DNA of 64,000 nucleotides from Spirochaetia bacterium (GTDB lineage: Bacteria; Spirochaetota; Spirochaetia; SZUA-6; Bin103): NCBI GenBank assembly GCA_965208575.1, contig CBDBOV010000006.1, positions 288,001-352,000 on the forward strand, in the 5' to 3' direction. The translations under genes were made by a program, and so were the position numbers. Of this stretch, positions 13,483 through 32,684 are shown in pieces (the first letter of the stretch is position 1; every line of letters begins with the position of its first letter). Below the pieces are notes generated by a model that was not told the origin of the DNA, searched no databases, and saw nothing but the letters and a program-made list of their open reading frames with translations.

Positions 13483-13814
13483 GCTTCAGGCGTCCTGGGC
13501 GAATACCGAGATAGATTCCATCCAACACCTTCTCCGGCAACATCCTCCACGGCCCTTGCCGGATGGGCCCATTCTACTCCACACGGACACGATGGTGTCT
13601 TGTAGCCCGAGAAGTTCCGACAGCGACGCGACGCGCACCACCATGACCAGCCCATCGCTGGTTGTCGATCCCTCGTGGAAGCACCGATAGGCTCGGTGAC
13701 TGCACCATGAACACCTTGGTATCTTCCAATTACCGCGATCTCGTTGGAAGCCCCATTGTATGTAGCTGCACCACGGGATGAGTAACTGGGACAGGACTTA
13801 CCCTCGACGGAGAC

Positions 13815-14782
13815 ATGGATTTGATTACTGACGACAATGCAAAGTGTCAAATATGGACATCCAAACGCGCTGTTTACTTGCCCAGCAACGCTTCAGATGT
13901 CATTCGCATCGAATCCTCACGAGCCGGCGGTACATACAGGTTCACTGACTCGGCTTGGATGCAACTCGGGAATCTCAGTGAAGTCGAAAGCGCCCGGCTC
14001 ACAACCTTGTTGGTGGATCGGAGAATCCAGGGAGAAAACGAACCCTAGTCACACCTTCTTTGATTGACAAGGCCCTCAGGATGGAGTCGCTTGACGTGGC
14101 GGAGCGCGCGGACAGACTTCTCAGGTTCGTCGCGCACCGCTCGAAACACCCGGGGGACACAGTATTTCTCAGAATCCAGAATCAGGACTCGGACACACTC
14201 AATCTTGCCATGGCATGGACGGAGTCGACAACTCTAGATGAAGTACGATACTTCCGAGACTATCTGGTGCGCAACGGCTGGTTACTTAAGTCAGTAGGTC
14301 CTCACTACTCTGTCTCGATAGAGGGCTATGGACGGATTGCCGACCTCAAGGGGCACCCTGACTCTACGCAAGCGTTTGTTGCAATGTGGTTCGATGGTGA
14401 AATGGCTACGGTCTACGAAAACGGAATTGCACCAGCAATCGAGCAGGCTGGATTCAAGCCCATGCGCATAGACAAGAAAGGAGACGTCGTCAAGATTGAT
14501 GATGAAATAATCGCAGAAATCAGGAAGTCTCGTTTCTTGGTAGCCGACTTCACCCATGGCGACGAAGGGGCACGGGGAGGCGTCTACTTTGAGGCTGGGT
14601 TTGCATTTGGTCTCGGTCTACCAGTGATCCACACTTGCCGGTCCGACATGGTGGACAAGATCCACTTTGACACTCGGCAGTATTTTCACACTGTGTGGGA
14701 ACGTCCTGACGACCTACGAGTAAGCCTCACCAATAGAATCGTCGCGCTCCTCGGGACGGGTCCGAACCGGCCTCCCTCTTGA
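13815..14782 (+). pseudogene. frameshifted nucleoside-2-deoxyribosyltransferase/TIR-like domain protein (ORFs 13815-14048 and 14060-14782)
   Basis: AFVAMWF, IDDEIIAEIRKSRFLVADFT, RGGVYFEAGFA; one extra base at ~14045 would join the ORFs (ENEPLVTPSLIDKA); lower GC than flanks. Confidence 0.7.
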
Positions 14783-14869
14783 TTACGCGACGAACCTCAC
14801 CTTCGAGCACATCTCCACGGTGGCGTCCTCAGAGTGCTTGAAGTGACGGCTATGTGGTAGGTTGCGGGC

Positions 14870-15625
14870 ATGGGACTGAAAGACAAGGTGTGCATCGTTA
14901 CCGGCGGGGGCAGTGGGATTGGCCGGGCTGCGGCGCTGCTGATGGCGGCGCAGGGGGCGCGGGTGGCGGTGGTGGGCCGCACCGAGAGCAAGCTCACGGC
15001 GGTGCGTGGCGAGATCGAACGCCAGGGCGGCAGCGCGCTGGCTCTGAGCCTGGACGTGGCCGACCACGCGGCGGTGCAGCGCATGGCCGCCGAGGTGCTG
15101 GCCACATGGGCGCGTATCGACGTGCTGGTGAACAACGCCGGTCATTCGTCGACCCACCGCATGCTGCTCACCACCACGCCCGAGGATATCCGCGGCACCA
15201 TCGACTCCAACCTGGCCGGCACGATCTACTGCTCGCAGGCGGTGGTGCCTGCCATGCAGGCCGCCGGTAGGGGCACCATCATCAATGTTGCCTCGTTGGC
15301 CGGCGTCGGCGGCAGCCTGCTCGGCGGCCCGTCCTACTCCGCGGCCAAGGCGGGGGTGATCAACTTCACCCAGTATCTGAATACCGAGTTCAGGAACAGC
15401 GGACTGCGCGCCAGCGTCATCATCCCCGGCGAGGTCGACACCCCGATCGTCGAGCAGCGCCCGGTACACCCCAGCCCCGAGGCGCGCGCCACCATGGCCA
15501 CCTCCGAGGACGTGGCGCGGGCGATCCTCCTGGTCGCCGATCTGCCGCAGCGCACCCTGATCCCGGAGCTGACCATCCGCCCCACCTACCTGCGCGACAC
15601 CTCGGCCGAGGTCGGCGTCAAGTAA
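14870..15625 (+). CDS. SDR family NAD(P)-dependent oxidoreductase
   Basis: TGGGSGIG, NNAG, YSAAK. Confidence 0.92.
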   Translation: MGLKDKVCIVTGGGSGIGRAAALLMAAQGARVAVVGRTESKLTAVRGEIERQGGSALALSLDVADHAAVQRMAAEVLATWARIDVLVNNAGHSSTHRMLLTTTPEDIRGTIDSNLAGTIYCSQAVVPAMQAAGRGTIINVASLAGVGGSLLGGPSYSAAKAGVINFTQYLNTEFRNSGLRASVIIPGEVDTPIVEQRPVHPSPEARATMATSEDVARAILLVADLPQRTLIPELTIRPTYLRDTSAEVGVK

Positions 15626-15628
15626 GGG

Positions 15629-16720
15629 TCACGGGAGGAGGAAGGGCTGTAGCGCGGCGCGGTCCAGTTCCACGCAGTGGCCGGGGCGGTCGGGGGGCAG
15701 CGCGGCGCCGCACTCCAGGCGCGGGGGCTTGCGCACGAAGCGCTCGGTGGCGAAGCCGTGCACTTCCAGGAAGGAGGCGTTGGGCACCGCGGCCAGCAGA
15801 TGAACGTGCAGTTCGTGGACGCCGTGGGAAGTCACCGGCAGGCGGTGCGCGGCGGCGAGCTCGGCCACCTTCATCCAGGCGCTGATGCCGCCGATGTTGG
15901 ACACGTCCGGCTCCGGGAACGCCACGCCGCCAGCGCCGATCAGGTGGGCGAATTCACTCACCGTGCGCAGGTTTTCGCCGGCGGCCAGCGGTAGCCCGCC
16001 ACCCTCGGCCACCCGGCGGTGGCCGTCGTAGTCGTCAGGCTCGATCGGCTCCTCCAGCCAGTACACCCCGAAGCGCGCCAACTCGCGCGCCGCGGAGACC
16101 GCCTCGTCGACGGTCCAGCGCATGTTGGCATCGACCATCAGCGCCGTTTCCGCTCCCACGAGGTCGCGCACCGCCGCCACGCGCTCCAGGTCCTCGCCGA
16201 GGACGTCGCGCCCCACCTTCATCTTGACGGCGCGGAAGCCGCGGCCAAGCGCGCCGCGGGTCTGCTCCAGCAGTTCATCGAGCGGCAACAGCAGGTCGAT
16301 GCCGCCCACGTATGCCGGCACCGGCTTCGCCGCCTGCCCGCCCAGTGTCCGCCACAGCGGTTCCTGCCGCACCCTGCCGCGCAAATCCCACAGCGCGATG
16401 TCTACCGCGGAAATGGCGAACGCCGCGATCCCGCCACGGCCCACGTAGTGGGTCCACTGCCACATACGGCGCCACAGCGCCTCGATGTCGCCGGCGTCAG
16501 CGCCGATCAGCAGCGGTGCAAGGTCGCGCTCGATCAGCGCCAGGATCGCGCCCCCGCCGGCGTGCACGGTGTAGGTGTAGCCCAGCCCGGTATGCCCGCC
16601 GGTGGCCGCCACCTCCACTGTCACCAGGTCGTAGTGATCGTGGCGGCCGTGCGTGGCGTCGGTGAGCGGCGCGGCCAGCGGAATCCGGTAGCAGGCGGCG
16701 CTGATATCGGTAATCTTCAC
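15629..16720 (-). CDS. mandelate racemase-subgroup enolase, 3,6-anhydrogalactonate cycloisomerase-like
   Basis: LTDATHGRHDH, GYTYT, HYVGRGG, AYVGGIDL, KMK, DAN, WLEEP, GENL, SHGVHELH, FLEVH. Confidence 0.8.
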   Translation of the reverse strand: MKITDISAACYRIPLAAPLTDATHGRHDHYDLVTVEVAATGGHTGLGYTYTVHAGGGAILALIERDLAPLLIGADAGDIEALWRRMWQWTHYVGRGGIAAFAISAVDIALWDLRGRVRQEPLWRTLGGQAAKPVPAYVGGIDLLLPLDELLEQTRGALGRGFRAVKMKVGRDVLGEDLERVAAVRDLVGAETALMVDANMRWTVDEAVSAARELARFGVYWLEEPIEPDDYDGHRRVAEGGGLPLAAGENLRTVSEFAHLIGAGGVAFPEPDVSNIGGISAWMKVAELAAAHRLPVTSHGVHELHVHLLAAVPNASFLEVHGFATERFVRKPPRLECGAALPPDRPGHCVELDRAALQPFLLP

Positions 16721-16727
16721 CCTTGCC

Positions 16728-17348
16728 TCAGACAATGTTGGCTTGCAGCGCGGCCAACGCCCCCGGCTCGTCGTGAGCCGCCACCGCCTCGTAGATCAGC
16801 CGGTGCTCGGCGAAGCTGTCCATCAGGTCGCTGAACCGGTCGTAGCGCATCAACATGCGGATGATCACCCGCCGCCACAGCGCCAGCAGATCGGGGTCGC
16901 CGTGGCTGGCCATGATCGCCTCGTGAAAGCGGACGTCGCCAGCCACCAGGTCGCGCGCGTTGCCCGCCTCACAGGCGCTGCGGATCTGCTCCAGCACCTC
17001 GCCGAGCCGCCCCTCCAGTAGGCCAAGCCGCTCGCCGTCGGCAAAGGTATTGCTCAAGGCGAACCCCTCGATGCGGCGCCGGATGTCGGTGATCAGCGCA
17101 CGGATCGCCTCATTGGGGCGCGCCGCCACCGTGGCGCCGGCGTTGGGGCGGGTGTTGACCAGCCCGTCCTGGCCGAGCTTGAGCAGCGCGTCGCGCACCG
17201 GGCCGCGGCTCACCCCGAAGCGTGCGGACAACTCCTGCTCGCGCAGTGGGATGCCTTCGTCCAGCTCCCCGGTCATGATCTCCAGGCGGAGCTGCTCCAC
17301 GATCTGCTCGGAGATGGAACGGTACACCGGTGCCGTCAGGGGGCTCAT
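16728..17348 (-). CDS. GntR (FCD) family transcriptional regulator
   Basis: wHTH LREQELSARFGVSRGPVRDAL; FCD motifs DVRFHEAI and EHRLIYEA; ATGA overlap with the upstream glycosidase. Confidence 0.92.
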   Translation of the reverse strand: MSPLTAPVYRSISEQIVEQLRLEIMTGELDEGIPLREQELSARFGVSRGPVRDALLKLGQDGLVNTRPNAGATVAARPNEAIRALITDIRRRIEGFALSNTFADGERLGLLEGRLGEVLEQIRSACEAGNARDLVAGDVRFHEAIMASHGDPDLLALWRRVIIRMLMRYDRFSDLMDSFAEHRLIYEAVAAHDEPGALAALQANIV

Positions 17349-18571
17349 CCCACGGTACGGTTGACGGTGGCCGGCGCCGACCGGGCCAGGGCGAACGCCT
17401 CCTCGCGCTGGCTGTCGCGCAACGCGAACGAGCTCTGCATGAAGGTATGCTCGTCGCAGCGCAGGTTGTTGACCGTGAAGCCGCGCCGGTTCAGGTCGCG
17501 ATGCAGATCGCAGTCGAAGCGCACCAGGAACGAGTGCCGCCGCGGGTAGAGCTGCTCGGCGTCCGGGATGTCGGTCAGGTGCGACAGTCCCCAGGAGATG
17601 CCGCGGCCGTCGCCGTCGTCCGCGAACGCGTCGGGACAGAACGGGCCGCCCGCGATGGGCGGCATCTGCACGTGCGCCTTCACCTCGAAGTTGAGCCCGT
17701 CCGGCGCGTACTGGACGGTGTCCTTCTCCGGGCCGTCCATCGCCACCAGCCCCGCCACGCCGCCGCGGTAAGGCCAGTACATGGTCTCGTGGCCGGAGTT
17801 GACCACCGGGTTCAGGGGCGACTTCACGAACGGACCCTCCGGCCGGTCGGCGATCGCCACCCCGCCGGCGCGCAGGATGGTCCTGCCCGGTTCCTGGTCC
17901 AGCGGCGCGCCCTTGTAGTACAGCCAGTACTTGCCACGGTACACGATCACGAACGGGTCGTGGATGGAGCGGCTGTCCCATTCGTCCGGCGCGCCAAGCT
18001 CCACCACCGGCCGGTCCACGCGCTGCCATGGACCGTCGGGCGAATCGGCCCACGCCATGCTCACGTCGCAGTAGTCGCCGCGTGCGCGCCGGAACGGGCC
18101 GGTGAACGTCTGGAAGTAGAGGTAGTACCTGCCGTTCGCGGCCACGATGTCGCAGGTGGTCGCCGAGCGGTCGCCGTACTCGCCCGGAGCCGTGCGCGCC
18201 ACCGCGACGCCGCGCTCCTGCCAGTCGAAGCCGTCCGTGCTGGTGGCGTACCACAGGTCGGCCAAGTCCCAGTCCACTGCCGGCAGGTGGTCGGGCCCGT
18301 TTTCGATGCCCAGCGGCTCCGACTCGGTCTCGCGCCGCGTGTACCACACGTAGAACAGGTCGCCCACCTTGATCACCGACGAGGGGTCGCGGCGCGACAC
18401 CTTGGCGTCGCGGCCGATCCCGGTGATGCGCGCGTAGCGGAAGCTGGTGAAGAACTCGTTGCCGGGATCCTGCAGCGGGCTCCACTGGTCGTACAGCCGG
18501 TGCATCGCCGCGGACAGCGGCCGGTCGGTCGGTTTTTCGTGCGGGGGAATCGCAGGGAACGCTGCCACCAC
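17345..18571 (-). CDS. GH117-like five-bladed beta-propeller glycoside hydrolase
   Basis: SAAMHR (SxAxxR), SRRDPS, DWDLADLWYATS, IHDP, YYKG, NSGHE, QYAPDGLNF. Confidence 0.82.
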   Translation of the reverse strand: MVAAFPAIPPHEKPTDRPLSAAMHRLYDQWSPLQDPGNEFFTSFRYARITGIGRDAKVSRRDPSSVIKVGDLFYVWYTRRETESEPLGIENGPDHLPAVDWDLADLWYATSTDGFDWQERGVAVARTAPGEYGDRSATTCDIVAANGRYYLYFQTFTGPFRRARGDYCDVSMAWADSPDGPWQRVDRPVVELGAPDEWDSRSIHDPFVIVYRGKYWLYYKGAPLDQEPGRTILRAGGVAIADRPEGPFVKSPLNPVVNSGHETMYWPYRGGVAGLVAMDGPEKDTVQYAPDGLNFEVKAHVQMPPIAGGPFCPDAFADDGDGRGISWGLSHLTDIPDAEQLYPRRHSFLVRFDCDLHRDLNRRGFTVNNLRCDEHTFMQSSFALRDSQREEAFALARSAPATVNRTVG

Positions 18572-18595
18572 GCCCTCCTTGAGTGGACTGCGGCA

Positions 18596-18678
18596 AGTGT
18601 ACGGACTCCGTCACGTTCGTCAAGGTGTCAACTGTCAACAATCAACGCGTTGACCCCTGGACGTTCGGACCCTATCCT
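18596..18678. promoter_or_regulatory. divergent sigma70 promoters with a GntR-type operator (TGTCAACAATC at 18633-18643)
   Basis: Plus strand TTGACC, 17 bp, TATCCT (18650-18678); minus strand TTGACG, 16 bp, TACACT; the operator is the reverse complement of the motif at 21619-21656. Confidence 0.6.
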
Positions 18679-18697
18679 GCCCGGCGAGGAGTTGCAC

Positions 18698-18850
18698 GTG
18701 GGTACAGTGATCATCACGGGTGCATCGCGCGGTATCGGACCGGGACTCACGGTGGAGGAGTCGACCGCCAAGATCGTCAAACCGGTCGCCGAGCACGGCC
18801 CGGACGAGCCTTCCGCCATCAGCCACACCGGCGCCCGCCGCGACTGGTAG
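18698..18850 (+). pseudogene. collapsed SDR minigene (50 aa)
   Basis: GAGGAG RBS and GTG start; TVIITGASRGIG fused directly to LTVEEST..G..RDW, a C-terminus typical of CsgA-type SDRs. Confidence 0.65.
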
Positions 18851-18869
18851 CGCCACGCTACGTAATTCC

Positions 18870-21629
18870 ATGCGCCTCGTCGACGACCGCCCGCCGCTGC
18901 CGGAGGAACCGCCGCGCCGCAAGCCCGCTGGACAGCGGTTGAGCGCCGCCACCCACCGGCTCTACGACCAGTGGGGCCGGTACGGAGATTCCGCGAGCGA
19001 ATTCTATACCACGTTCCGCTATTCGCTGCTGCCCGGCCTCGGTCCGGAGCCGGGCGTAACGCGCCGCGACCCGACCGCGGTGGTGCACGCCGGCGGGTAC
19101 TTCCACGCGTGGTACACGCGGCGTGCCGGCGGCGACCGGGACGCCGGCAACCAGGTGCGCAAGGGGCGCACGCAGCGCTGGGACGTTGCCGCCTACGACT
19201 GGGATCTGGCGGAAATCTGGCACGCCACCTCGCCGGACGGGATCACCTGGTGCGAGCAGGGCCGGGCGGTGGCGCGCGGACCGCGCGACGCGTTCGACGG
19301 GCGCAGCGTGTTCACGCCCGGCATCCTGGTGTGGCGCGGCCGCTACTTCCTGTACTACCAGGCGGTGGGACATCCCTACGGCACGCGTACCCGCAACGTG
19401 GTCGGCATGGCGTGGGCGGACGCGCCGGAAGGTCCCTGGCACCGCCACGGCGAGCCCGTGCTGACGCCCGGCACGCCCGGCGAGTGGCGCGGCGATGACG
19501 ACGGCAACGCGGTGACCCGCTACGGCGCCTGGGACAGCCACAAGGTGCATGACCCGCAACCGCTCGTGCGCGGCGGCAAGGTATGGCTCTACTACAAGGG
19601 CCAGCCGATGGGCTGGGGCACCGGCGGCGACGGCGGCATCGGCTGGGGCGTGGCGACCGCCGACCGTCCCGAGGGGCCGTTCGTGAAGTCGCCGCTCAAC
19701 CCGGTAACCAACAGCGGCCACGAGACGCTGCTGTTCCCCTACCGCGAGGGCGTTGCCGCGATCTGCAACCACGACGGGCCGGAGAAGGACACCGTGCAGT
19801 ACGCGCCCGACGGCCTCGACTTCGAGGTGAAGGCGCACGTGGTGCTGCCGCCGCCCGCCGGCGCGCCGTACGCGCCCGATCTGTTCGCGGACAACCGCGA
19901 CGGGCGCGGCATCACCTGGGGCCTCGCGCACCTGGCGCGGGAGGAGTTGAAGCGCGGCAACTCCTACCTGGTGCGCTTCGACTGCAACCTGTCGCGTGAC
20001 GTGGAGCGCCCCGGCTTCCGCCGCTCCAACCACCGCTTCCCGGAGTCGGTCTACTTCTCGCCCGACCTGCTGTTCTCCGGCGCGACTGCGCCCGAAGCGC
20101 GCCGAGCGCATACGGCGCGGCCCGGCCACCGGGGATCGGATGCCGGGGCCGGCGCCAAACCCGGCCGTTGCGAGCCCGACCGCGCCGGAACCGGCCTGAA
20201 CCCGCCCACCGCCCCGGTCACCGCGGGTGCGCACCGCTCCGGATCGTCCGCAGTGCCGGCTGCGGCAGCGGCCGCAGTACCGGCTGCGGCAGCGTCCGCA
20301 GTGCCGGCTGCGGCAGCGGCCGCGGGCGTTGCCGCCGGCACCGCCGAGGTTGCCGGCGGCACGGACCGCTCGCCGCCGGGCACACCACGGCCCGCGGTGG
20401 GGCATGACCCGCGCCCGGACCCACTGCCGCCCGCGGCTGCCGATGATCCGGACGCGGCCACGCGGGGCGTCCCGGTGAGCGCCGCGACCCGCCGGGTGCG
20501 CGAGGTGTACGGCGCCGCCAAGGACCAGGGCAGCGAGTTCTTCTCCGCCTTCAAGTACGCGCCGGTAACCGGCGTCGGCAAACAGCACGGCGTGAGCCGG
20601 CGCGATCCGAGCAAGGTGATCCGGGTCGGCGGCACCTACTACGTGTGGTACACCCGCCGCCAGTCGGCGCCGCCGGCGGGCTTCGCCGGCGCCACCGATA
20701 CGGTACCGGTGTGGGACTGGGACTTGGGCGAGCTGTGGTACGCCACCAGCGCCGACGGTCACGCCTGGGAGGAGCGCGGCCGGGCGGTGGCGCGCGGCCC
20801 GCGCGGCGCGTTCGACGACCGCTCGGTGCTCACCCCGGACATCCCGGTCTGGGAGGGCCGCTACTACCTCTACTTCCAGGTGCTGCAGGGCCCCTACCGC
20901 GAGCGCTCCATCTACCAGGTCGGGATGGCGCACGCCGACTCTCCCGACGGGCCGTGGCAGCGCTGGCCGGAGCCGGTGCTGCGCCCCGGCGAGCCGGCGC
21001 CCGTGCTGGCCGCCGGCAGCGATGACCCCGACGCCGTAAACCGGTTCGGCGCCTGGGACAGCCACAAGCTGCACGATCCCTACCTGCTGGTGCGCGGCGG
21101 GCGCATCTGGCTCTACTACAAGGGCGTTCCGTTCGGCCGCCACTACCGCCACGACCTCGGCTGCCAGTGGGGTGTGGCGATCGCCGACCGCCCCGAGGGG
21201 CCGTTCGAGCGCAGCCCGCTCAATCCGGTGACCAACAGCGGTCACGAGACGTTCCTCTACCCCTACCGCGAGGGAGTGGTCGCCATCACCAGCCTGGAGG
21301 GCCCCGAAAAGAACACGGTGCAGTACGCCCCGGACGGGCTCAACTTCGAGGTGGTCGGCAAGGTGTCGGCGCCGCCGGTTGCGGCCGGTCCCCACGTACC
21401 CGATGCCTTCACCGACACCCGCGACGGCGAAGGCATCACCTGGGGGCTGGCACACCTCCACCACGGCCCTCACGGCACGCTGCCCAACAGCTACCTGGTT
21501 CGCTTCGAGTGCAACCTGAGCCGCCGCGTGCGCCGCCCCGGCTTCTTCCGGGCGTGGAATTTCCGCTTTCCCGCCGTTGCCTACCTGCCGGAGACGGCGG
21601 ACGATCCCCTGTTCACAACCGATTGTTGA
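18870..21629 (+). CDS. tandem double GH117-like glycoside hydrolase with Ala/Pro linker
   Basis: Two complete motif sets (SAATHR/SAATRR, RRDP, WDL, HDP, SGHE) joined by a low-complexity linker of ~120 aa. Confidence 0.82.
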   Translation: MRLVDDRPPLPEEPPRRKPAGQRLSAATHRLYDQWGRYGDSASEFYTTFRYSLLPGLGPEPGVTRRDPTAVVHAGGYFHAWYTRRAGGDRDAGNQVRKGRTQRWDVAAYDWDLAEIWHATSPDGITWCEQGRAVARGPRDAFDGRSVFTPGILVWRGRYFLYYQAVGHPYGTRTRNVVGMAWADAPEGPWHRHGEPVLTPGTPGEWRGDDDGNAVTRYGAWDSHKVHDPQPLVRGGKVWLYYKGQPMGWGTGGDGGIGWGVATADRPEGPFVKSPLNPVTNSGHETLLFPYREGVAAICNHDGPEKDTVQYAPDGLDFEVKAHVVLPPPAGAPYAPDLFADNRDGRGITWGLAHLAREELKRGNSYLVRFDCNLSRDVERPGFRRSNHRFPESVYFSPDLLFSGATAPEARRAHTARPGHRGSDAGAGAKPGRCEPDRAGTGLNPPTAPVTAGAHRSGSSAVPAAAAAAVPAAAASAVPAAAAAAGVAAGTAEVAGGTDRSPPGTPRPAVGHDPRPDPLPPAAADDPDAATRGVPVSAATRRVREVYGAAKDQGSEFFSAFKYAPVTGVGKQHGVSRRDPSKVIRVGGTYYVWYTRRQSAPPAGFAGATDTVPVWDWDLGELWYATSADGHAWEERGRAVARGPRGAFDDRSVLTPDIPVWEGRYYLYFQVLQGPYRERSIYQVGMAHADSPDGPWQRWPEPVLRPGEPAPVLAAGSDDPDAVNRFGAWDSHKLHDPYLLVRGGRIWLYYKGVPFGRHYRHDLGCQWGVAIADRPEGPFERSPLNPVTNSGHETFLYPYREGVVAITSLEGPEKNTVQYAPDGLNFEVVGKVSAPPVAAGPHVPDAFTDTRDGEGITWGLAHLHHGPHGTLPNSYLVRFECNLSRRVRRPGFFRAWNFRFPAVAYLPETADDPLFTTDC
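20248..20319 (+). repeat. 3 x 24-bp tandem repeat CCGCAGT(G/A)CCGGCTGCGGCAGCG(G/T) encoding AVPAAAA(A/S)
   Basis: Seen directly, in the inter-domain linker. Confidence 0.9.
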
Positions 21630-21678
21630 CAATGTCTACAGCCGATTGTTGACAATCCAGCGCGGGCCCGGCTATAGT
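21619..21678 (+). promoter_or_regulatory. two operators CCGATTGTTGACAAT (21619-21633, 21642-21656) overlapping a sigma70 promoter
   Basis: Perfect 15-bp direct repeat with a near-palindromic core ATTGT-TG-ACAAT; TTGACA (21649-21654), 18 bp, TATAGT (21673-21678). Confidence 0.75.
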
Positions 21679-21704
21679 CGTCTCGTCCTTGAGGCTCATT
21701 CGCG

Positions 21705-22703
21705 TTGAGTGCCTACATCATCCGCCGGCTCTGGTCCATGATCCCGACGCTGCTCATTACCACGGTCGTGGTGTTTCTCCTGATCCGCCTGATGCCGGGA
21801 GACGTGATCGACACCATCATCGAGGATCTGCAGAACCGAGGCACCAGCGAGGCCGCCATCGCCGCCACCCGGGCATTCATCGCGGAGGAACTGGGTCTCG
21901 ATGTTCCCGGCCCGATCCAGTACGGCCGCTGGCTCGGCATCCTGCCGCAACCCGACGGCAGGATCAGCGGCATCCTGCAGGGCGACTTCGGCCTCTCGCT
22001 GTGGTCCAAGAAGCCGGTTCTGTCGCGCATTGCGCCGCGCTGGCCGGTCACCCTGGAACTGGGCCTGATGGCGCTGGTGGTCAGCCAGCTCATTTCGCTG
22101 CCGATCGGTGTCTACTCGGCCTTGCGCCAGGACACCATCGGCGACTACCTCGCGCGCAGCTTCGCGTTCGCCCTGATCGCGGTGCCCAACTTCTGGATCG
22201 CCACCCTGGTGGTGGTACTGCCGTCGATCTGGTGGGGCTACACGCCGCCGATCATGCTGATCCGCTTCAGTGAAGATCCGCTCGGCAACCTGCAGATGTT
22301 CATCCTGCCCGCCATCGTCCTGGGCATGGGCATGTCCGGCATGACGATGCGCATGACACGCACCATGATGCTGGAGGTGCTGCGCCAGGACTACATCAGG
22401 ACGGCGTGGTCCAAGGGCCTGCGCGAGCGGCTCATCGTGGTGCGCCACGCGCTCAAGAACGCGTTCATTCCGGTCATAACCCAGATTGGCCTGTTGTTGC
22501 CGCTGCTGATCGGCGGCACGGTGATCATCGAGAACATATTCGGTCTGCCTGGCATGGGACAGCTCACTCTCGACGCCATCGCCAAGCGCGACTACGCGAC
22601 CGTGAGCGGGCTGATGCTGCTGGTAGCGGCCGGCATCATGGCGATCAACCTCGGCGTAGACCTGGTGTACGCCTGGCTGGACCCGAGGATCCACTACCGA
22701 TGA
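21705..22703 (+). CDS. peptide/nickel-family ABC permease (DppB/OppB-like)
   Basis: YIIRRL..LMPGD, EVLRQDYIRTAWSKGL, LDPRIHY. Confidence 0.92.
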   Translation: MSAYIIRRLWSMIPTLLITTVVVFLLIRLMPGDVIDTIIEDLQNRGTSEAAIAATRAFIAEELGLDVPGPIQYGRWLGILPQPDGRISGILQGDFGLSLWSKKPVLSRIAPRWPVTLELGLMALVVSQLISLPIGVYSALRQDTIGDYLARSFAFALIAVPNFWIATLVVVLPSIWWGYTPPIMLIRFSEDPLGNLQMFILPAIVLGMGMSGMTMRMTRTMMLEVLRQDYIRTAWSKGLRERLIVVRHALKNAFIPVITQIGLLLPLLIGGTVIIENIFGLPGMGQLTLDAIAKRDYATVSGLMLLVAAGIMAINLGVDLVYAWLDPRIHYR

Positions 22704-23701
22704 GCGGCACGCGCGATCGGCTCAACGTCGCCAACCTGGAGGTGCCGCGGACGCGGTCGCTGTGGGTCGACGCTGCGCGGCGCCTGTTCACCGAGAAGCC
22801 GCTGGGTGCGGTGGGCGCCGTGGTGACGGTCGCACTCCTGTTCACCGGGCTGTTCGCCGACCTGATCGCCCCCTACGGCTACAACGAAGTGTTCCCGCAG
22901 CTCGCCAAGTCGCCGCCGTCGGCGCGGTTCTGGCTCGGCACCGACCATATCGGCCGCGACATGCTCAGCCGGGTGATCTACGGCGCCCGCATCTCCATGA
23001 TCGTCGGACTGGCCGCTTCGGTAGTGTCGTCGATCGTGGAACTGGTGCTGGGGATGTCGAGCGGTTACCTCGGGCGCAAGTTCGACATGATCCTGCAGCG
23101 CTTCGTGGACGCCGTCATGGGCTTTCCCGGCATCGTCCTGCTGGTGGTGGTGATGTCCCTGGTCGGCCCCGGCATGGCCACGATCATCATCGTGCTGGGG
23201 CTGCGCTGGGGCATCAACGGATCGCGCATCATCCGCGGCGCCGTGCTGTCGATCAAAAGCAACGCCTACGTCGACGCTGCCATCGCCACTGGATGCCGCA
23301 CCACGCAGGTGCTGGTGCGCCACATACTGCCGCACATCGTGGCTCCCTTGATCATCAACTTCAGCACGCGGGTGCCGGGCATCATCCTTACCGAGGCGAG
23401 CCTGAGCTTCCTCGGCTACGGCGTGCCGCCGCCGGCACCGAGCTGGGGCGGCATGCTGAGCGGTCCGGGCCGGGAACACATGCTCACCGCTCCATGGATC
23501 GCGATCTGGCCGGGCGTCGCGCTGAGCGTCGTCGTGTACGGCGTGAACATGCTCGGCGATGCCGTGCGCGACATCCTCGACCCGCGCCTGCGCGGCGGCA
23601 GCGGCCGGTACGGCGTGCGCGCGCGACGGACGCGGCACCTCACGAACAAGACTGATGGAACGCGAGCGCGTACTGTCGCGGCATCGGCGGCGGGCGACTG
23701 A
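22700..23701 (+). CDS. peptide/nickel-family ABC permease (DppC/OppC-like)
   Basis: LGTDHIGRDMLSRVIYGARIS, EASLSFLG, GDAVRDILDPR. Confidence 0.92.
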   Translation: MSGTRDRLNVANLEVPRTRSLWVDAARRLFTEKPLGAVGAVVTVALLFTGLFADLIAPYGYNEVFPQLAKSPPSARFWLGTDHIGRDMLSRVIYGARISMIVGLAASVVSSIVELVLGMSSGYLGRKFDMILQRFVDAVMGFPGIVLLVVVMSLVGPGMATIIIVLGLRWGINGSRIIRGAVLSIKSNAYVDAAIATGCRTTQVLVRHILPHIVAPLIINFSTRVPGIILTEASLSFLGYGVPPPAPSWGGMLSGPGREHMLTAPWIAIWPGVALSVVVYGVNMLGDAVRDILDPRLRGGSGRYGVRARRTRHLTNKTDGTRARTVAASAAGD

Positions 23702-23786
23702 CATGAGAATGATGCGAGAGGTCCACGAGGGGTGGACCACCCGAACAACCCAATCGCGAGCGAGAGGCTCGACGAAGGAGGACAAC

Positions 23787-25526
23787 ATGCAGAGTTTCGT
23801 ACCGGCGGCTGCCAGGAAGTGGCTGCTGTACGTCATCGTGGCGCTGGCGAGCGTGCCGGCGTTCGCCACCGGCGAGGAAGAAGCTGCCTCGGCAGCGGGC
23901 GACGGACCGCAGCACGGCGGCACCCTGACCGCCTTCCGGTCCGACCTGGAGCCGGTGCAGGCGGACCAGACGTCGACCGTAGGCAGGGCGCCGGCACTGG
24001 TCTACAGCGGTCCGATCATGGACTACCTGTTGATGACCGACTACCAGACCTGCGGGCCGCGCGGGTCGGGCGTCTTTCCGAGCACCTATCCGGGCATCTA
24101 CCTGACGCCCGAGCAGTGCTGGACCGGTGCGCTGGCGGAGAGTTGGGAGGTGCACGAGGACAAGATCGTGTTCCACCTGCGCCAGGGCGTGATGTGGCAG
24201 GGCAACGACAACATCGGCTTCGAACCGCGCGAACTGGTCGCCGAGGACGTGGCGTTCGCACTCGCGCGCGCCTGGAACTCGCGCCCCACGGCCTGGACCT
24301 GGGACGGCGGCGCCATCGACAACATCGTCGCCCAGGACAAGTACACCGTGGTGGTCGAACTCAGCCGCTTCGACCTGGAGTGGGTGGTGTGGACCGCCGC
24401 CAACCCCAACGCCATCTACGCCCCGGAGGTGGTAGAGGCCGGCGCCGGCGAGTGGGAGAACCAGGCGGGCACCGGCCCGTTCCGGTTCGCGGAGTACGTG
24501 GAAGGGTCGTTCATGCGCTACCAGCCGCACGACAACTACTGGGCCAGTCCGACGGTCATCGACGGCGTGGAGTACGACACGCCGTTCGTCGACGAGCTGA
24601 TCTACGTGATCATCAAGGATCATTCCACCCGCGTCGCCGCGCTGCGTACCGCCAAGCTGGATGTCTACTACTGGATGCCGGTGCGGGAAGAGGAGTCGCT
24701 CGCGCAAACCGCGCCCGACCTGGAGAAGTTCCGCTACCTCAGCTCCGGCACCCACGCGCTCGGCTTGCGCAGCGACGTCGAGCCGCTCAGCAACCAGCGC
24801 CTGCGGCACGCGCTGTCGATGGCACTGGATTCCAGGCAGATCGCCGACACCGTGCTGCTGGAAGCGCAGACCGAGGGCATCTTCCCCATGATCGAAGGCT
24901 ATCCGGGCCACATTCCGCCCGACCAGCTCGATCCGGAGATCCGCGCCGTCTACGAGTACCACCCCGATCGCGCCAAGGAGATTCTGGCCGAAGAGGGCTA
25001 CCCGGACGGGTTCAAGCTGAACACCATCGTGCGCGCCGCTGACTCCACCAGCGTCGCCATACTGGAACTGGCCAAGAGCTACTGGGAGGCGATCGGGGTC
25101 GACCTGGAGATCAACGCGCTGGAGCAGCTCGCCTACCAGACCGAGCGCCGCGAGAGGAACTACCACGTGATCCGCTCCCACCTGCAGAACCAGCGCGAGG
25201 TCGGCGCGTTCAACAAGCACTCGATCAACTTCGCGGGGGGCTGGAACGACGCCATCTGGACCGACCCGACCTACTACGACCCGCTGTTCGTGGAAACCAG
25301 CGCCACCCTGGACCTGGAGGAGCGTAACAAGATGTGGGCGCAACTGGCGCAGATCGTGGTCGAGGCAACCGCCTACGTGCCGATCGGCATTCAATACGAG
25401 CTCACCTACTGGTGGCCGTGGGTCAAGAACTACTTCGGCGAGTCGTCGACGACGTTCCGGTCAAGCAGTATGGTAGAGGCCGGCATCTGGATCGACCAGA
25501 ACCTCAAGCAGGAGATGGGCTACTAG
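23787..25526 (+). CDS. family 5 ABC substrate-binding protein
   Basis: AAGGAGG RBS; signal peptide (AFA-TGEEE); GALAESWEV, GTGPFRF, GYPDGF. Confidence 0.9.
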   Translation: MQSFVPAAARKWLLYVIVALASVPAFATGEEEAASAAGDGPQHGGTLTAFRSDLEPVQADQTSTVGRAPALVYSGPIMDYLLMTDYQTCGPRGSGVFPSTYPGIYLTPEQCWTGALAESWEVHEDKIVFHLRQGVMWQGNDNIGFEPRELVAEDVAFALARAWNSRPTAWTWDGGAIDNIVAQDKYTVVVELSRFDLEWVVWTAANPNAIYAPEVVEAGAGEWENQAGTGPFRFAEYVEGSFMRYQPHDNYWASPTVIDGVEYDTPFVDELIYVIIKDHSTRVAALRTAKLDVYYWMPVREEESLAQTAPDLEKFRYLSSGTHALGLRSDVEPLSNQRLRHALSMALDSRQIADTVLLEAQTEGIFPMIEGYPGHIPPDQLDPEIRAVYEYHPDRAKEILAEEGYPDGFKLNTIVRAADSTSVAILELAKSYWEAIGVDLEINALEQLAYQTERRERNYHVIRSHLQNQREVGAFNKHSINFAGGWNDAIWTDPTYYDPLFVETSATLDLEERNKMWAQLAQIVVEATAYVPIGIQYELTYWWPWVKNYFGESSTTFRSSSMVEAGIWIDQNLKQEMGY

Positions 25527-25614
25527 GAGGCTGTGCGGATTACGACAGGCTCCTGGTGATCGGACGGGATGGGCCAAAAGCGGCGCCACGGGCGGCGGTT
25601 TTGGGGCGCTAGCG
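25523..25614 (+). repeat. dispersed ~95-bp repeat, copy 2
   Basis: CTAGGAGGCTGT..CGACAGGCTCCT..GGACGGGATGGGCC.AAAGCG.CGCC..TTGGGGCGCTAGCGA, homologous to the reverse complement of 7440-7535. Confidence 0.7.
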
Positions 25615-25725
25615 ACACTGCGTAACGGGCCGATCCGGATAATTCAGCATCAATCGCGGCGGTGGCGGAGGCGAGCTTCCGGCCGCCGCCGCATGGAGTG
25701 AAGCGCGATGCAACGAGGCTGGGCC

Positions 25726-26340
25726 ATGATCGTTCGACTGCGGCTGTTCGCGGGCGCGATGTCGGCGGTTATGTGCCTGGCGGCGTGCGGCGACCGGGAG
25801 TCAGACGGCGGCGCTGGCGCCTCCGGCGAGCCCGCGCCCGCTGCTGGCACCACCGAAGCGGCCCCGTCCACGGCGGCCGACGCCGCCGCCGGGTCGCCCG
25901 ACCATCCGCGGCTGGCGGTCGGGGAACCCTACTCCACCGATGCCTTCATGGTCACCGTGCTCGGTTCCACCATGATCACCAGCTACGACTACTTCGACAA
26001 GGGCACCGAGGCGACCGCCACCAAGGAGGCGGACCCCGAGGACGCGTTCCTGATCGTCGACATCGAATTCGAGTCGCTCGGCGCCTGGTCGCTGGGAACC
26101 AACGGCAACCAGCTTGCCCTGCGCGGCCAGTTCACGGTAACCGACGGTGCCGACAACCAGTACTCCTACGCCCCCTACTTCGGCGAGAAGGCGCTCGTCC
26201 TGGCGCCCCACCTGGACAAGGGTGAGACGGTGCGCGGCGAGATCATGTACGTGGTCCCGCAGGACGCCGGGGGACTGACCATCCGGTACATGGGCCGCGT
26301 GTTTCCGCGCCCCACCCTCGCCGAGTGGACGCTGGAGTAA
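25726..26340 (+). CDS. DUF4352-like lipoprotein
   Basis: Lipobox LAAC, Ala/Pro tether, Ig-like domain with GETVRGEIMYVVP. Confidence 0.7.
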   Translation: MIVRLRLFAGAMSAVMCLAACGDRESDGGAGASGEPAPAAGTTEAAPSTAADAAAGSPDHPRLAVGEPYSTDAFMVTVLGSTMITSYDYFDKGTEATATKEADPEDAFLIVDIEFESLGAWSLGTNGNQLALRGQFTVTDGADNQYSYAPYFGEKALVLAPHLDKGETVRGEIMYVVPQDAGGLTIRYMGRVFPRPTLAEWTLE

Positions 26341-26365
26341 TCACATCCCCACGGAGAAACAACCG

Positions 26366-27526
26366 ATGGACTACTTTCCCGCCCGCATACCGGCGACCAA
26401 GCCCCCCGGAGTCGAACTCAGTGCCGCCATGCACCGTCAGTACGACCTGTGGGACAGCACCGCCGAGTACGACAACGAGTTCTACTCCCGGTTCAGGTAC
26501 AGCGAACTGGCCGGCTTCCCCGACGACGGTTTCGTGTCGCGCCGCGACCCCTCCAAGGTGATCAAGGTCGGCGACCGGTACTACGTGTATTACACCTGCC
26601 GCCGCACCGGCAACGACATCGTCGCCGCGGGCGAGGACGACGACACCCATGCGTCCACCGACTGGGACCTGGCCGACATCTACGTGGCGACATCGCACGA
26701 CGGGTTCGCCTGGGAGGAGAAGGGGCCGGCGCTGCGGCGCTCCAAGCCGGGACGCTTCGGCTGCCGGTCGCTGTCGACGCCCGACGTCCTGCCGTGGAAC
26801 GGCCGCTACTACCTGTTCGTTCAGGTGTACAGCGACCTGATCCGCAACGACTCCTGCCCGGTCAGCGTCGGGGTGGCAGACCACCCGGAAGGGCCGTTCG
26901 AGCTGCTCGACCGGGAGCTGATACCGCTCGGGCCGCCCGACAGTTGGGACGGCAACTCGATCCACGACCCCTATCCGCTGATCTACCGCAACCGGATCCA
27001 CCTCTACTACAAGGGCCACCCGGTCCGGTTCAAGTCGCCGGACACCATGTACCTGGCGCAGGGGGTGGCGACCGCCGACACGCCGGAGGGGCCGTTCACC
27101 AAGTACGAGGGCAACCCGGTGCTCAACTCCGGTCACGAGACCATGCTGTGGCCCTACCGGGAGGGGATCGCGTCGCTGCAGATCCGCAACGGCAACGAGG
27201 GCAACACCGTGCAGTACGCGCCCGACGGCCTCAACTTCCAGCTCAAGGCGATCGTCGACGTTCCTCCGCACGCCGGCGGCCCCTACATCCCCGACCTGCT
27301 CGCCGACAGCGGCGACGGACGCGGCATCCTGTGGGGCCTGTGCTTCGTGCGGTCGAGCTACGAGGAGCGCTACCGCTCGCGGCTGCTGCGCTTCGACTGC
27401 AGCCTGAGCCGCGACCTGGAACGCCCCGGCTTCAAGGGCGCCCGCCAGTACACAGAGGAGCAGTATCTCGCCTTTCCCCTATCCCCCGAGGAGCGCTCCT
27501 TCCTGACCGAAGCCGGCGGCGCCTGA
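26366..27526 (+). CDS. GH117-like glycoside hydrolase
   Basis: SAAMHR, SRRDPS, DWDLADIYVATS, IHDP, NSGHE, QYAPDGLNF. Confidence 0.82.
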   Translation: MDYFPARIPATKPPGVELSAAMHRQYDLWDSTAEYDNEFYSRFRYSELAGFPDDGFVSRRDPSKVIKVGDRYYVYYTCRRTGNDIVAAGEDDDTHASTDWDLADIYVATSHDGFAWEEKGPALRRSKPGRFGCRSLSTPDVLPWNGRYYLFVQVYSDLIRNDSCPVSVGVADHPEGPFELLDRELIPLGPPDSWDGNSIHDPYPLIYRNRIHLYYKGHPVRFKSPDTMYLAQGVATADTPEGPFTKYEGNPVLNSGHETMLWPYREGIASLQIRNGNEGNTVQYAPDGLNFQLKAIVDVPPHAGGPYIPDLLADSGDGRGILWGLCFVRSSYEERYRSRLLRFDCSLSRDLERPGFKGARQYTEEQYLAFPLSPEERSFLTEAGGA

Positions 27527-27600
27527 TCCCGGATGGTAGCCCCGACGGGGCGCAAAGCCGTATCATTTGCCCTTCTCGCACCGGGAGAAGGATCCGAACT

Positions 27601-28848
27601 ATGCAGATCAGGAAGTCCGACAAGCTCGAACACGTATGCTACGACATTCGCGGACCCGTTCTGGCCGCCGCGCGGCGCCTGGAAGATGAAGGGTTCCGGG
27701 TCGCGAAGCTGAACATCGGCGATCCGGCCAAGTGGGGCTTCGAAGCGCCCGAGGAGATCCTGCGCGACGTGGTAATGAACATCGCCGAAGGGCAGGGCTA
27801 CGGCGACTCGCAGGGGCTGTTCTGCGCGCGCAAGGCGATCATGCAGCACTACCAGTCCCTCGGCGTGCCGCGCGTGCAGATCGAAGACGTCTACCTCGGC
27901 AACGGCGTCAGCGAACTGATCACCATGTCCCTGCAGGGGCTGCTCAACGACGGCGACGAGGTGCTGATTCCGGCACCCGACTATCCGCTGTGGACGGCGG
28001 CGGCGAATCTGGCCGGCGGCCGCCCGGTGCACTACCTGTGCGACGAGGAAGCCGACTGGACTCCCGACATCGAAGACATCGCCGCCAAGATCACCTCCCG
28101 CACCAGGGCGATCGTGGTGATCAATCCCAACAACCCAACCGGCGCGGTGTACCCGCGCGACTGCCTGGAGCGGATCGTGGCGCTCGCCCGCGAGCACGAA
28201 CTGGTCCTCTTCGCCGACGAGATCTACGACAAGATCGTCTACGACGGAGTACGGCACACGCCGCTGGCCACGCTCGCCGACGACATTCTCATCGGCACCT
28301 TCAACGGGCTCTCCAAGACCTACCGCATTCCCGGCTTCCGCTCCGGCTGGCTGCTGCTCAGCGGCGCCAGGCACCAGGCGCGCGACTACATCGAGGGCCT
28401 CGGCATCCTGTCGGCGATGCGGCTGTGCGCCAACATGCCGGCGCAACTCGCCATCCAGACTTCGCTCGGCGGCTTTCAGAGCATCAACCAGCTTACCGCC
28501 CCCGGCGGACGCCTGGCGGTGCAGCGCGACACGCTGTACGAGGCGATCAACGCCATTCCCGGCATCTCCTGCACCAGGCCGCAGGGTGCGTTCTACCTGT
28601 TTCCGAAGATCGATACCCGCCGCTTCGGGGTGGTGGACGACGAACGCATGGTCCTGGACCTGCTGGAGCAGGAGAAGGTGCTGATCGTGCAGGGTACCGC
28701 GTTCAACTGGGTCCGGCCCGACCACTTCCGCATGGTGTTTCTGCCGCACGCCGACCAGCTCGCCGACGTGACGGCCAGAATCGGCCATTTCTTCGGCCAC
28801 TACGTGCAGGAGGGCGGCGTGCCGGCATTGGCCGGCCGCAGCGCCTGA
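27601..28848 (+). CDS. alaA: PLP-dependent alanine aminotransferase (AlaA/YfbQ type)
   Basis: KSDKLEHVCYDIRGPV, LNIGDP, GNGVSELI, INPNNPTG, GLSKTYR. Confidence 0.88.
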   Translation: MQIRKSDKLEHVCYDIRGPVLAAARRLEDEGFRVAKLNIGDPAKWGFEAPEEILRDVVMNIAEGQGYGDSQGLFCARKAIMQHYQSLGVPRVQIEDVYLGNGVSELITMSLQGLLNDGDEVLIPAPDYPLWTAAANLAGGRPVHYLCDEEADWTPDIEDIAAKITSRTRAIVVINPNNPTGAVYPRDCLERIVALAREHELVLFADEIYDKIVYDGVRHTPLATLADDILIGTFNGLSKTYRIPGFRSGWLLLSGARHQARDYIEGLGILSAMRLCANMPAQLAIQTSLGGFQSINQLTAPGGRLAVQRDTLYEAINAIPGISCTRPQGAFYLFPKIDTRRFGVVDDERMVLDLLEQEKVLIVQGTAFNWVRPDHFRMVFLPHADQLADVTARIGHFFGHYVQEGGVPALAGRSA

Positions 28849-30434: not shown

Positions 30435-30523
30435 CGCGGCACAGAGATCGTCGTCACCGGTGCCGGGGAACCCTCACCGTCGACTGCGCCGCCGTGCGCC
30501 CGCTTGGCCGCCCGCCGCCGACG

Positions 30524-30552
30524 TTGCGGACAGTCGAGGCGGGTGCTACACT
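30524..30552 (+). promoter_or_regulatory. putative extended -10 sigma70 promoter
   Basis: TTGCGG, 17 bp, TACACT with TG at the extended -10 position. Confidence 0.4.
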
Positions 30553-30659
30553 CTCCCTGTCCAAAGGCAGCCAAGCCCGCGAACCTGAGCGCCGCACGCA
30601 TAATGCCGCGAGGTGCGTGGCCGGCTGTCGATTCAGCCCAGTCCGAAAAGGAGATCATC

Positions 30660-32633: not shown

Positions 32634-32684
32634 GCAGGAGCCCCGCGTCGCCCGGCGCCGGCACGTAACGCAGCCCACGGCGCC

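Follow-up and report, generated by a model that had tools for sequence, protein, structure and literature searches.

Why would a bacterium keep four GH117 domains, an importer and a candidate sugar-acid enzyme together in one cluster, and which glycan do they serve? The pathway in which GH117 enzymes and anhydrogalactose (AHG) are linked is textbook knowledge in agar-degrading Bacteroidota, Gammaproteobacteria and Streptomyces. The question is raised here by a 64,000-nucleotide stretch (the window; coordinates below are positions in it) from the genome of a Spirochaetia bacterium (G000, 6.5 Mb, 95% complete), which carries such a cluster at 14870-27526. The locus is read here as a regulon repressed by a GntR/FCD protein, which would take up small oligosaccharides capped with alpha-L-(3,6-anhydro)galactose, such as pieces of the red-algal galactans agar and porphyran, and degrade them in the cytoplasm. 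We consider this the probable answer, though by no means a secure one. A first-pass annotation, made from the letters alone, had listed four GH117-like domains in three genes, a GntR regulator with an enolase, a peptide-type importer, a lipoprotein and a shared operator, and the gene map bears out this inventory. It had also proposed the use of anhydrogalactose, which is largely supported by the GH117 assignment, by the best matches of the enolase and by the fit of the import route, and which falls short at a short-chain dehydrogenase/reductase (SDR) and at the missing AHG dehydrogenase (AHGD).

The component families are all known. What appears to be new is their assembly into a cytoplasmic multi-GH117 regulon with a candidate 3,6-anhydro-L-galactonate cycloisomerase (ACI; EC 5.5.1.25) and an Opp-type importer, found in Spirochaetia-labelled and Chloroflexota genomes, together with a tandem GH117 architecture and a defined operator. 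The portions of the literature covered by our search describe no multi-GH117/ACI regulon, tandem GH117 or operator of this kind. In what follows, dom1 is the domain of the single-domain protein GH117_1, dom2 and dom3 are the halves of the tandem protein, and dom4 is the domain of GH117_4. Two loci of the same genus, labelled 'MAG: Spirochaetia bacterium' (L001 and L002), and four loci from Chloroflexota metagenome-assembled genomes (MAGs; L004-L007) recur as points of comparison.

The strong matches of all four domains in the Protein Data Bank (PDB) are exclusively to GH117 structures (4u6d, 4u6b, 5ta7, 4ak5, 3p2n and 3r4y, with E values from 1e-48 to 1e-109), whereas structures of GH43, the competing family, appear only at E values of 4e-6 or above. 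A Foldseek search with a predicted model likewise places GH117 entries at the top (4u6d at 1.4e-35, versus about 1e-9 for GH43). Pfam holds no GH117 model and returns a marginal GH43 match only, and NCBIfam gives no family-level name to the GH117 domains or to the enolase. Judged from these matches, the four domains are true GH117 members, which answers the choice between GH117 and GH43 that had been left to be checked.

To place the catalytic residues, the four window domains and twelve relatives (16 rows) were aligned and mapped onto the Phocaeicola plebeius enzyme, in which PDB chain positions run 2 ahead of the published numbering. The equivalents of Asp90 (in RRDP), Asp245 (HDP), Lys260 (YYK), His302 and Glu303 (both in SGHE) are invariant in 16 of 16 domains, and each window domain has the motifs SxAxxR, RRDP, HDP and SGHE that had been listed at first, the N-terminal one reading LSAAMHR, LSAATHR, VSAATRR and LSAAMHR from dom1 to dom4. 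According to PMC11574756, mutation of any one of Glu303, Asp90, Asp245, Glu167 and His302 inactivates a clade-A enzyme, with Asp90 as the general base, His302 as the general acid and Asp320 as the dyad partner of His302. The residue equivalent to Glu167, which follows TP/TC, is D, G, D and D in dom1 to dom4, as first reported, but it is not unusual as had been supposed. Asp also stands there in Zg3615 and Zg3597 of Zobellia galactanivorans and in the remaining non-clade-A domains of the alignment; it is therefore, on this alignment, a clade trait and does not point to a new substrate. The one exceptional residue is the Gly of dom2, which recurs in the L001 orthologue alone and not in that of Chloroflexota. 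The Asp320 equivalent is D, D, E and N in the same order, with Glu conserved in the dom3 orthogroup (including L001 and L004) and Asn found also in two enzymes of locus L003.

Zg3615 (4u6d) and Zg3597 (4u6b) are the best matches of dom1, dom3 and dom4 in sequence and fold, and the former was crystallised with beta-3,6-anhydro-L-galactose, according to the title of its PDB entry. These paralogues share Asp at 167 with dom1, dom3 and dom4, and a C-terminal tail, RFDC.LS.D..RPGF, with all four window domains. Unlike the Zobellia proteins, which are deposited as periplasmic protein or lipoprotein, the window domains have no signal peptides; as first noted, no GH117 N-terminus in the window has a hydrophobic leader, whereas homologues in L003, L008 and L009 have one. 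The window also differs from the Zobellia paralogues in its two fused domains, in an insert of about 17 residues (GEW.GDDD...) that dom2 and dom3 have in common with clade A, and in the varied residues at 167 (G) and 320 (E, N). Clade A itself, made up of alpha-1,3-(3,6-anhydro)-L-galactosidases (BpGH117 4ak5, ZgAhgA 3p2n, SdNABH 3r4y and BuGH117B 5ta7), has the same fold and the motifs SxAxxR, RRDP, HDP, YYK and SGHE, and dom2 and dom3 score as high to it as to the Zobellia paralogues. In contrast, it has Glu167 and Asp320, and its alignments stop before the RFDC tail, so that clade A is without it.

The enolase links these domains to a particular acid sugar. Its best PDB matches are 2ovl (1.9e-110) and the Vibrio ACI 5xd7 (4.9e-100), the next standing at 1e-58 and L-fuconate dehydratases at about 1e-31. 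In bits, it scores 338-373 to ACI-type entries, versus 190-200 to talarate/galactarate dehydratase and 111 to L-fuconate dehydratase. The motifs DATHGRHDH, HYVGRGG, GGIDL and LEVH, which had been likened to the Vibrio cycloisomerase, are all present, and that enzyme is indeed among the two best relatives. The KxK motif, the three metal ligands (Asp, Glu, Glu), the Asp/His dyad and a further Glu all agree with 2ovl, these being residues generic to the mandelate racemase (MR) subgroup. In PMC9706016, SCO3480 is an experimentally verified ACI for which active-site residues are listed. We infer that 2ovl is SCO3480; its numbering fits that list with an offset of +2, and all the listed MR-type residues line up in the window enolase. 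From these comparisons, the enolase is a candidate 3,6-anhydro-L-galactonate cycloisomerase.

At E<=1e-60, relatives of the enzyme number 5943 clusters, which bear generic names only; in so large a family identity alone proves little, and co-occurrence was therefore examined. Among 41 related genomes, an ACI orthologue (at least 55% identity) is found in six, and GH117 in all six of them; the orthologue is found in none of the 32 related genomes without a GH117 match (E<=1e-30), and three genomes have GH117 without the orthologue. In a tree of 39 enolases (IQ-TREE, quick), the window enzyme falls in an orthogroup of 19 rows (support 98), and for 17 of these rows the locus also carries GH117. 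Members of this orthogroup adjoin AHGD-like genes in L015, L019, L020, L065 and L066. Furthermore, 6 of 301 evenly sampled Chloroflexota genomes have a relative of the enolase (E<=1e-90); besides the source of L004, these are five genomes without GH117 (E<=1e-20), and the enolases of four of the five form a separate sister clade (support 100).

A comparable arrangement is the L-AHG pathway of Vibrio sp. EJY3 and Streptomyces coelicolor (SCO3471-3487), in which an ACI-type enolase adjoins a cytoplasmic GH117 and an ABC importer, as here. Unlike that pathway, the window has no aldehyde-dehydrogenase-type AHGD, its importer is of the Opp/Dpp type, its regulator is a GntR/FCD protein, and its GH117 domains number four rather than one. 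In S. coelicolor, the cluster instead relies on an ABC system of the sugar type and a regulator of the LacI type.

How would the substrate enter the cell? Family-5 substrate-binding proteins (SBPs) carry sugars in other bacteria, and an SBP_bac_5 protein with two permeases of the peptide/opine/nickel type in a sugar operon is the pattern of Opp/Dpp oligosaccharide importers. The cluster shows this pattern, with the SBP and DppB confirmed by Pfam and DppC by homology, and in L004, L015 and L034 the GH117/ACI sets are likewise found with a transporter of this kind. The SBP has an N-terminal Sec-type signal and a DUF4352 lipoprotein has a lipobox (Table 1), and the combination of an SBP and permease set with GH117 proteins that lack signal peptides fits import followed by hydrolysis in the cytoplasm. 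The best PDB match of the SBP reaches only 2.7e-28, too distant for a clue to its ligand, and the protein is not orthologous to the SBP of the Chloroflexota cluster or to those of other lineages. Unlike a complete transporter set, which includes two ATPases with an oligo_HPY tail, the cluster contains no ABC ATPase gene by Pfam or NCBIfam, and the nearest OppD/F pair lies about 20 kb away. Since only 28 oligo_HPY matches in the genome stand against at least 57 hits to family-5 SBPs, the ATPases are likely to be shared with other importers. The window has a second Opp set (30504-34828; SBP, OppB and OppC) that is also without ATPases, which suggests that many Opp-type importers draw on common ones.

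The cluster appears to be under common control. Its regulator, of the FadR/FCD subfamily of GntR proteins, has the N-terminal GntR winged helix and the C-terminal FCD domain in Pfam, and the operator is a palindrome, ATTGT-N2-ACAAT. The shared operator first suspected is confirmed at three sites, two exact copies of ATTGTTGACAAT upstream of dppB (O2 and O3) and one site with one mismatch (O1). The window has five strand-matches where 0.55 are expected, a count that none of 100 shuffles reached. O2 and O3 are the only exact copies in the whole genome, and the locus holds three of its eight sites with at most one mismatch; for the five one-mismatch sites elsewhere, a single region was inspected, and nothing relevant was seen there. 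A promoter scan of 14700-27800 gave only three sigma-70-like sites, which are consensus matches only and all stand at the operator regions. On the minus strand, the GH117_1 stop and the GntR start overlap as ATGA, and the GntR stop lies 8 nt into the listed enolase start; these genes are therefore read as one unit, which fits the co-transcription of GntR and enolase that had been put forward. The regulator is 45% identical over its full length to that of the Chloroflexota cluster and 63% identical to that of G017, a genome of a sister genus. The palindrome is kept along with the orthologous Chloroflexota regulator, the 12-mer ATTGTTGACAAT recurring, exact or with one mismatch, in three intergenic regions of L004-L007. 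By analogy with how FCD-type regulators usually work, GntR would act as a repressor that lets go in the presence of an acid sugar, and such an operator-regulator pair could report the inducer.

Taken together, these parts suggest the following scheme. Oligosaccharides would be captured by the periplasmic SBP, perhaps aided by the DUF4352 lipoprotein, and would pass through the Opp/Dpp permease pair with ATPases from elsewhere. In the cytoplasm, four exo-acting GH117 domains of differing specificity would remove the terminal L-sugar from differently decorated partners. The released anhydrogalactose would be oxidised by an enzyme other than an AHGD orthologue, and the ACI orthologue would then open the ring of 3,6-anhydro-L-galactonate to yield 2-keto-3-deoxy-L-galactonate. 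GntR would occupy ATTGT-N2-ACAAT over three promoters, and its release by an acid-sugar intermediate is probable.

Is the system confined to this genome? The impression of a one-off is not borne out, for several phyla have the tandem GH117, the importer of the Opp type and the operator of the GntR protein. In L001 and L002, the whole order from GH117_4 to the enolase is kept at 73-91% protein identity, and the full gene set is found in 4 of the 11 genomes of the genus. In the Chloroflexota loci L004-L007, the two halves of the tandem GH117 show 63-65% identity to dom2 and dom3. These loci also encode the regulator, orthologues of GH117_1 and of the enolase (60% each), two family-5 SBPs and permeases of the Opp type, and additionally a GMC oxidoreductase, a zinc-type alcohol dehydrogenase (Zn-ADH) and an SDR. 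A scan of metagenome contigs gave 67 loci, 10 of which have an ACI-like gene (at least 42% identity); among the 29 loci of at least 10 kb, 8 have one. Six of the 67 combine ACI with Zn-ADH and SDR. Of 76 loci examined for Aldedh, 6 have such a gene, and that of L015 matches 6j75, an anhydrogalactose dehydrogenase, at 2.6e-158.

Individual loci show how the parts vary. L015 carries a sulfatase, a tandem GH117, an Opp ATPase, Aldedh, ACI, GH117, SDR, Zn-ADH and OppC; L034 (33% G+C) has GH117, a tandem GH117, two Opp ATPases, GH117, SBP5, OppC and ACI; and L065 has GH117s, GH29, a sulfatase, Aldedh, ACI, Zn-ADH, SDR and a RhaT-like permease. In G017, the set is reduced to one GH117, ACI (55%), GntR and two sugar-type (BPD_transp_1) permeases (L083, G017:C1:115001-135000), and genome G003 keeps the ACI orthologue without the GH117 set. 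The minimal version in L083 adjoins a DDE transposase, and its GH117 stretch (9845-10927) has one stop codon, internal or terminal. In a FastTree phylogeny of 134 GH117 domains, dom2 belongs to a clade of 17 rows (support 99), 12 of them from loci with ACI, and dom3 to a clade of 14 rows (support 98), again 12 of them from such loci; where a row has no ACI beside it, the locus is short or truncated. Dom1 is placed close to the single GH117s of these loci, and dom4 forms a long branch with L001 and L002 only. Relatives of GH117_4 amount to about 15 protein clusters at 58-93% identity, the next ones sharing at most 56%.

All ten genes have dN/dS values of 0.10-0.41 against L001 and L002 (enolase 0.25-0.39, GH117_1 0.15-0.25, GH117_4 0.18-0.25) and are under purifying selection. 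In addition, two 'sponge metagenome' runs from one study and two coded-organism runs contain contigs that cover GH117_1 to dppB in the same order at about 94-95% identity.

Several observations, however, weigh against anhydrogalactose as the substrate. The first concern its oxidation. The absence of an AHGD, first stated for the window, extends to the whole genome, where no gene exceeds 34% identity to the AHGD-like one of L015, and to three cluster-bearing relatives (33-35%). Nor does the genome contain orthologues of the Zn-ADH and the SDR that accompany the set in other lineages (32% and 39%). Clade-A enzymes act in polysaccharide utilisation loci or with GH16, GH50, GH86 and GH2 partners, as described in PMC5849685; of these partners, GH16 and GH2 were looked for and not found in the genome. 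The earlier statement that agarases are absent thus holds for GH16 in the window and genome-wide. By Pfam, which has no model for GH50, GH86 and GH118, the genome also has no GH2_C or GH35 and a single GH42, so that only disaccharide-type substrates could be finished. Others concern the domains themselves. The Gly of dom2 sits at a position where mutation inactivates a clade-A enzyme (PMC11574756), and the dyad position 320 is Asn in dom4 and Glu in dom3. GH117 is polyspecific and includes, according to a preprint (bioRxiv 10.64898/2026.05.19.726164), anhydrogalactosidase, one beta-D-galactofuranosidase, weak alpha-L-fucosidases and an alpha-L-galactosidase. The nearest Bacteroidota relatives of GH117_1 sit among GH29 fucosidases and sulfatases (L003, L008). 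As for the enolase, the five Chloroflexota genomes without GH117 (loci L084-L088; genomes G135, G127, G252, G284 and G048) have ACI-like enolases of 45-53% identity, one of which falls inside the orthogroup of the window enzyme. The 39-enolase tree is without the two biochemically verified ACIs, the loci behind the association were mostly found through GH117 itself, and the related genomes are non-independent samples.

The strongest alternative is that the oligosaccharides bear a different L-sugar (for example alpha-L-fucosyl, alpha-L-galactosyl or galactofuranosyl) and stem from sulfated glycans of algae, invertebrates or a sponge host, and that the enolase dehydrates the matching acid sugar, of the L-fuconate, L-galactonate or D-arabinonate type. 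Such a reading would agree with the polyspecificity documented for GH117, and all four domains lie outside classical clade A by their RFDC.LS tail, three of them also by their best matches. It would also agree with the GH29 and sulfatase surroundings of the GH117_1 relatives and of several metagenome loci in which GH117 stands together with GH29 and sulfatase, with the 62 sulfatase matches in a genome that has neither an AHGD orthologue nor GH16, and with the generic names of the ACI-like family. The enolase, in contrast, scores far higher to ACI-type entries than to L-fuconate and talarate/galactarate dehydratases, its orthogroup has members beside AHGD-like genes, and Zg3615, the nearest structure, holds anhydrogalactose. 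A different L-sugar is therefore considered possible but unlikely. That the cluster is instead an incomplete, horizontally acquired module, of which only the D-galactose half is used while AHG goes to promiscuous enzymes, excretion or cross-feeding, or the pathway is decaying, is quite improbable: the genome indeed lacks the oxidation step as well as the Zn-ADH and SDR that would follow it, the distribution is patchy and the cluster borders a defence-gene island, G003 keeps its ACI orthologue alone, and dom2 has Gly at a catalytically important position, but all genes are intact and evolve under purifying selection, the operators persist together with the promoters, the gene order recurs in the contigs of other runs, and ACI is translationally coupled to the regulator and GH117_1.

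If anhydrogalactose is the substrate, which enzyme would oxidise it? The SDR beside the enolase gene, which the first-pass annotation had counted as part of the system, probably does not belong to it. In G009 and G010, its orthologue (78%) is located some 2 Mb away from the cluster; G007, which is without the cluster, has an orthologue of 89%; no operator lies upstream of the SDR gene, and no SDR match stands next to the cluster in L001 or L002. It adjoins the cluster also in the near-identical G006 and lies 4.4 kb from the ACI orthologue in G003, and it is kept as a candidate oxidiser. Three full-length Aldedh genes of the genome were considered as AHGD and set aside, as they resemble betaine-aldehyde, succinate-semialdehyde/lactaldehyde and methylmalonate-semialdehyde dehydrogenases in the PDB and stand in unrelated contexts. 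An aldo-keto reductase beside the L001 cluster was also set aside, its position not being kept. In Chloroflexota, the GMC (FAD) oxidoreductase at L004:8262-9857 and the genes of L016, L017 and L021 are 70-77% identical, and those loci have no Aldedh; this enzyme may be a non-orthologous replacement of the AHGD-like Aldedh in anhydrogalactose oxidation. It has no orthologue in G000. The missing step marks a gap where a non-orthologous enzyme should be found.

The tandem protein raises a question of its own, namely why two GH117 domains should be joined in one chain. In the GH117 dimer, the C-terminus of the partner completes the +1 subsite (PMC5849685), so that a fused pair makes mechanistic sense, and the chain probably folds into the obligate dimer of the family intramolecularly. 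An AlphaFold2 model of the whole tandem (12-row alignment; mean pLDDT 66, pTM 0.66) is too weak to show how the propellers pack; it predicts a disordered linker (residues 404-532, pLDDT < 50) and SxAxxR helices at residues 26-35 and 538-547, SxAxxR being the motif of the N-terminal helix-turn-helix through which GH117 dimers are domain-swapped. The Chloroflexota tandem, of 828 aa, has almost no linker. In the contigs of the other runs, the linker stretch 20075-20465 is replaced by 77 letters and the leader 18682-18867 by 11 letters; both stretches are hypervariable, while the flanking coding sequence is about 94-95% identical. Tandem GH117 proteins are common, with 193 clusters of at least 505 residues from Chloroflexota, Planctomycetota and Victivallales, some of them further fused to a sulfatase. 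Proteins of 1407-1421 aa join GH117 domains to a sulfatase in this way, one of them named Pirellulaceae. There is also a second tandem GH117 family, without a link to ACI; it and the sulfatase fusions are represented among P0114 and P0116-P0118 and loci L052-L054, L062, L038 and others.

A bolder reading can be offered tentatively, and we hold it to be rather less likely than not to stand as a whole. In it, the tandem would be an obligate heterodimer contained in a single chain, its two active sites differing in role; in this lineage, one of them, through the change of Glu167 to Gly, perhaps serves as a binding or specificity subunit. The system would then be part of a widespread, undescribed and agarase-free scavenging of decorated AHG-oligosaccharides from dissolved organic matter by several phyla, both sponge-associated and pelagic, in which AHG is oxidised by non-canonical enzymes such as the GMC oxidoreductase of Chloroflexota. 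The natural fusion itself argues for hetero-dimeric GH117 enzymes. To our knowledge, most GH117 clades have no known activity, and four paralogous domains with orthogroups across phyla provide a panel for the determinants of GH117 specificity. More broadly, the cluster suggests that bacteria without agarases, including sponge associates, may turn over fragments of red-algal galactans.

Table 1. Features of the cluster at 14870-27526, mapped from codon-position G+C, Pfam, NCBIfam and translations; the window as a whole has about 68% G+C
Feature	Position	Strand	Remarks
SDR, classical oxidoreductase, 251 aa	14870-15625	+	Pfam adh_short 9.6e-52; convergent with the enolase gene
Enolase-superfamily enzyme, candidate ACI	15629-16735	-	Pfam MR_MLE_N and MR_MLE_C
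GntR/FCD regulator, 206 aa	16728-17348	-	Pfam GntR 1.2e-15, FCD 6.7e-11
GH117_1, single-domain, 408 aa	17345-18571	-	first gene of the minus-strand operon; PDB 4u6d 5.1e-109, 4u6b 3.3e-99
Divergent control region, 298 bp	sites within 18596-18678		between GH117_1 and the tandem gene
Sigma-70-like promoter	18623-18596	-	consensus match
Operator O1	18631-18642		one mismatch, ATTGTTGACAGT on the minus strand; between the divergent promoters
Sigma-70-like promoter	18650-18678	+	consensus match
Tandem GH117, 919 aa	18870-21629	+	dom2, linker and dom3
dom2, N-terminal GH117, about residues 1-403	18870-20078	+	4ak5 2e-84, 4u6b 2.5e-84
Ala/Pro-rich linker, residues 404-532	20079-20465	+	
dom3, C-terminal GH117, residues 533-919	20466-21629	+	4u6d 2.6e-88
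Operator O2	21622-21633		exact
Operator O3	21645-21656		exact
Near-consensus promoter, TTGACA, 18-nt spacer, TATAGT	21649-21678	+	11 of 12 positions; -35 inside O3
DppB-like Opp/Dpp permease	21705-22703	+	BPD_transp_1 7.6e-35, BPD_transp_1_N; NCBIfam Opp2B 3.5e-84, below cut-off
DppC-like Opp/Dpp permease	22700-23701	+	by homology only, 84-87% to the L001/L002 gene, 34% to OppC of L004
Family-5 SBP	23787-25526	+	SBP_bac_5 1.2e-59; N-terminal Sec-type signal
DUF4352 lipoprotein	25708-26340	+	DUF4352 4.2e-07; lipobox LAAC; 78-81% conserved in L001 and L002
GH117_4, single-domain, 386 aa	26366-27526	+	4u6d 1.8e-100

The OppC protein of L004, to which the DppC-like permease was compared, carries OppC_N and BPD_transp_1. 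To the right of the cluster lie an aminotransferase and an MtaB-type methylthiotransferase, followed by housekeeping genes. The left flank (9987-14782) is lower in G+C and has defence-type genes, among them an RmrA/CapP-like protein, a fragment of a TIR-like effector and a stretch of 626 aa that matches the N-terminal portion of a Type IIG restriction-methyltransferase profile (1.6e-91). On the corresponding side of the L001 cluster lie AbiEii and DUF1156 genes; with defence genes on that side in both genomes, the cluster borders a variable island. Elsewhere, the source genome encodes at least 14 enolase-superfamily paralogues. Serpins are uncommon in bacteria, and full-length ones were met at L010:5404-6783 (G000:C6; Pfam Serpin 6.8e-108) and L083:7178-8371 (2.5e-105).

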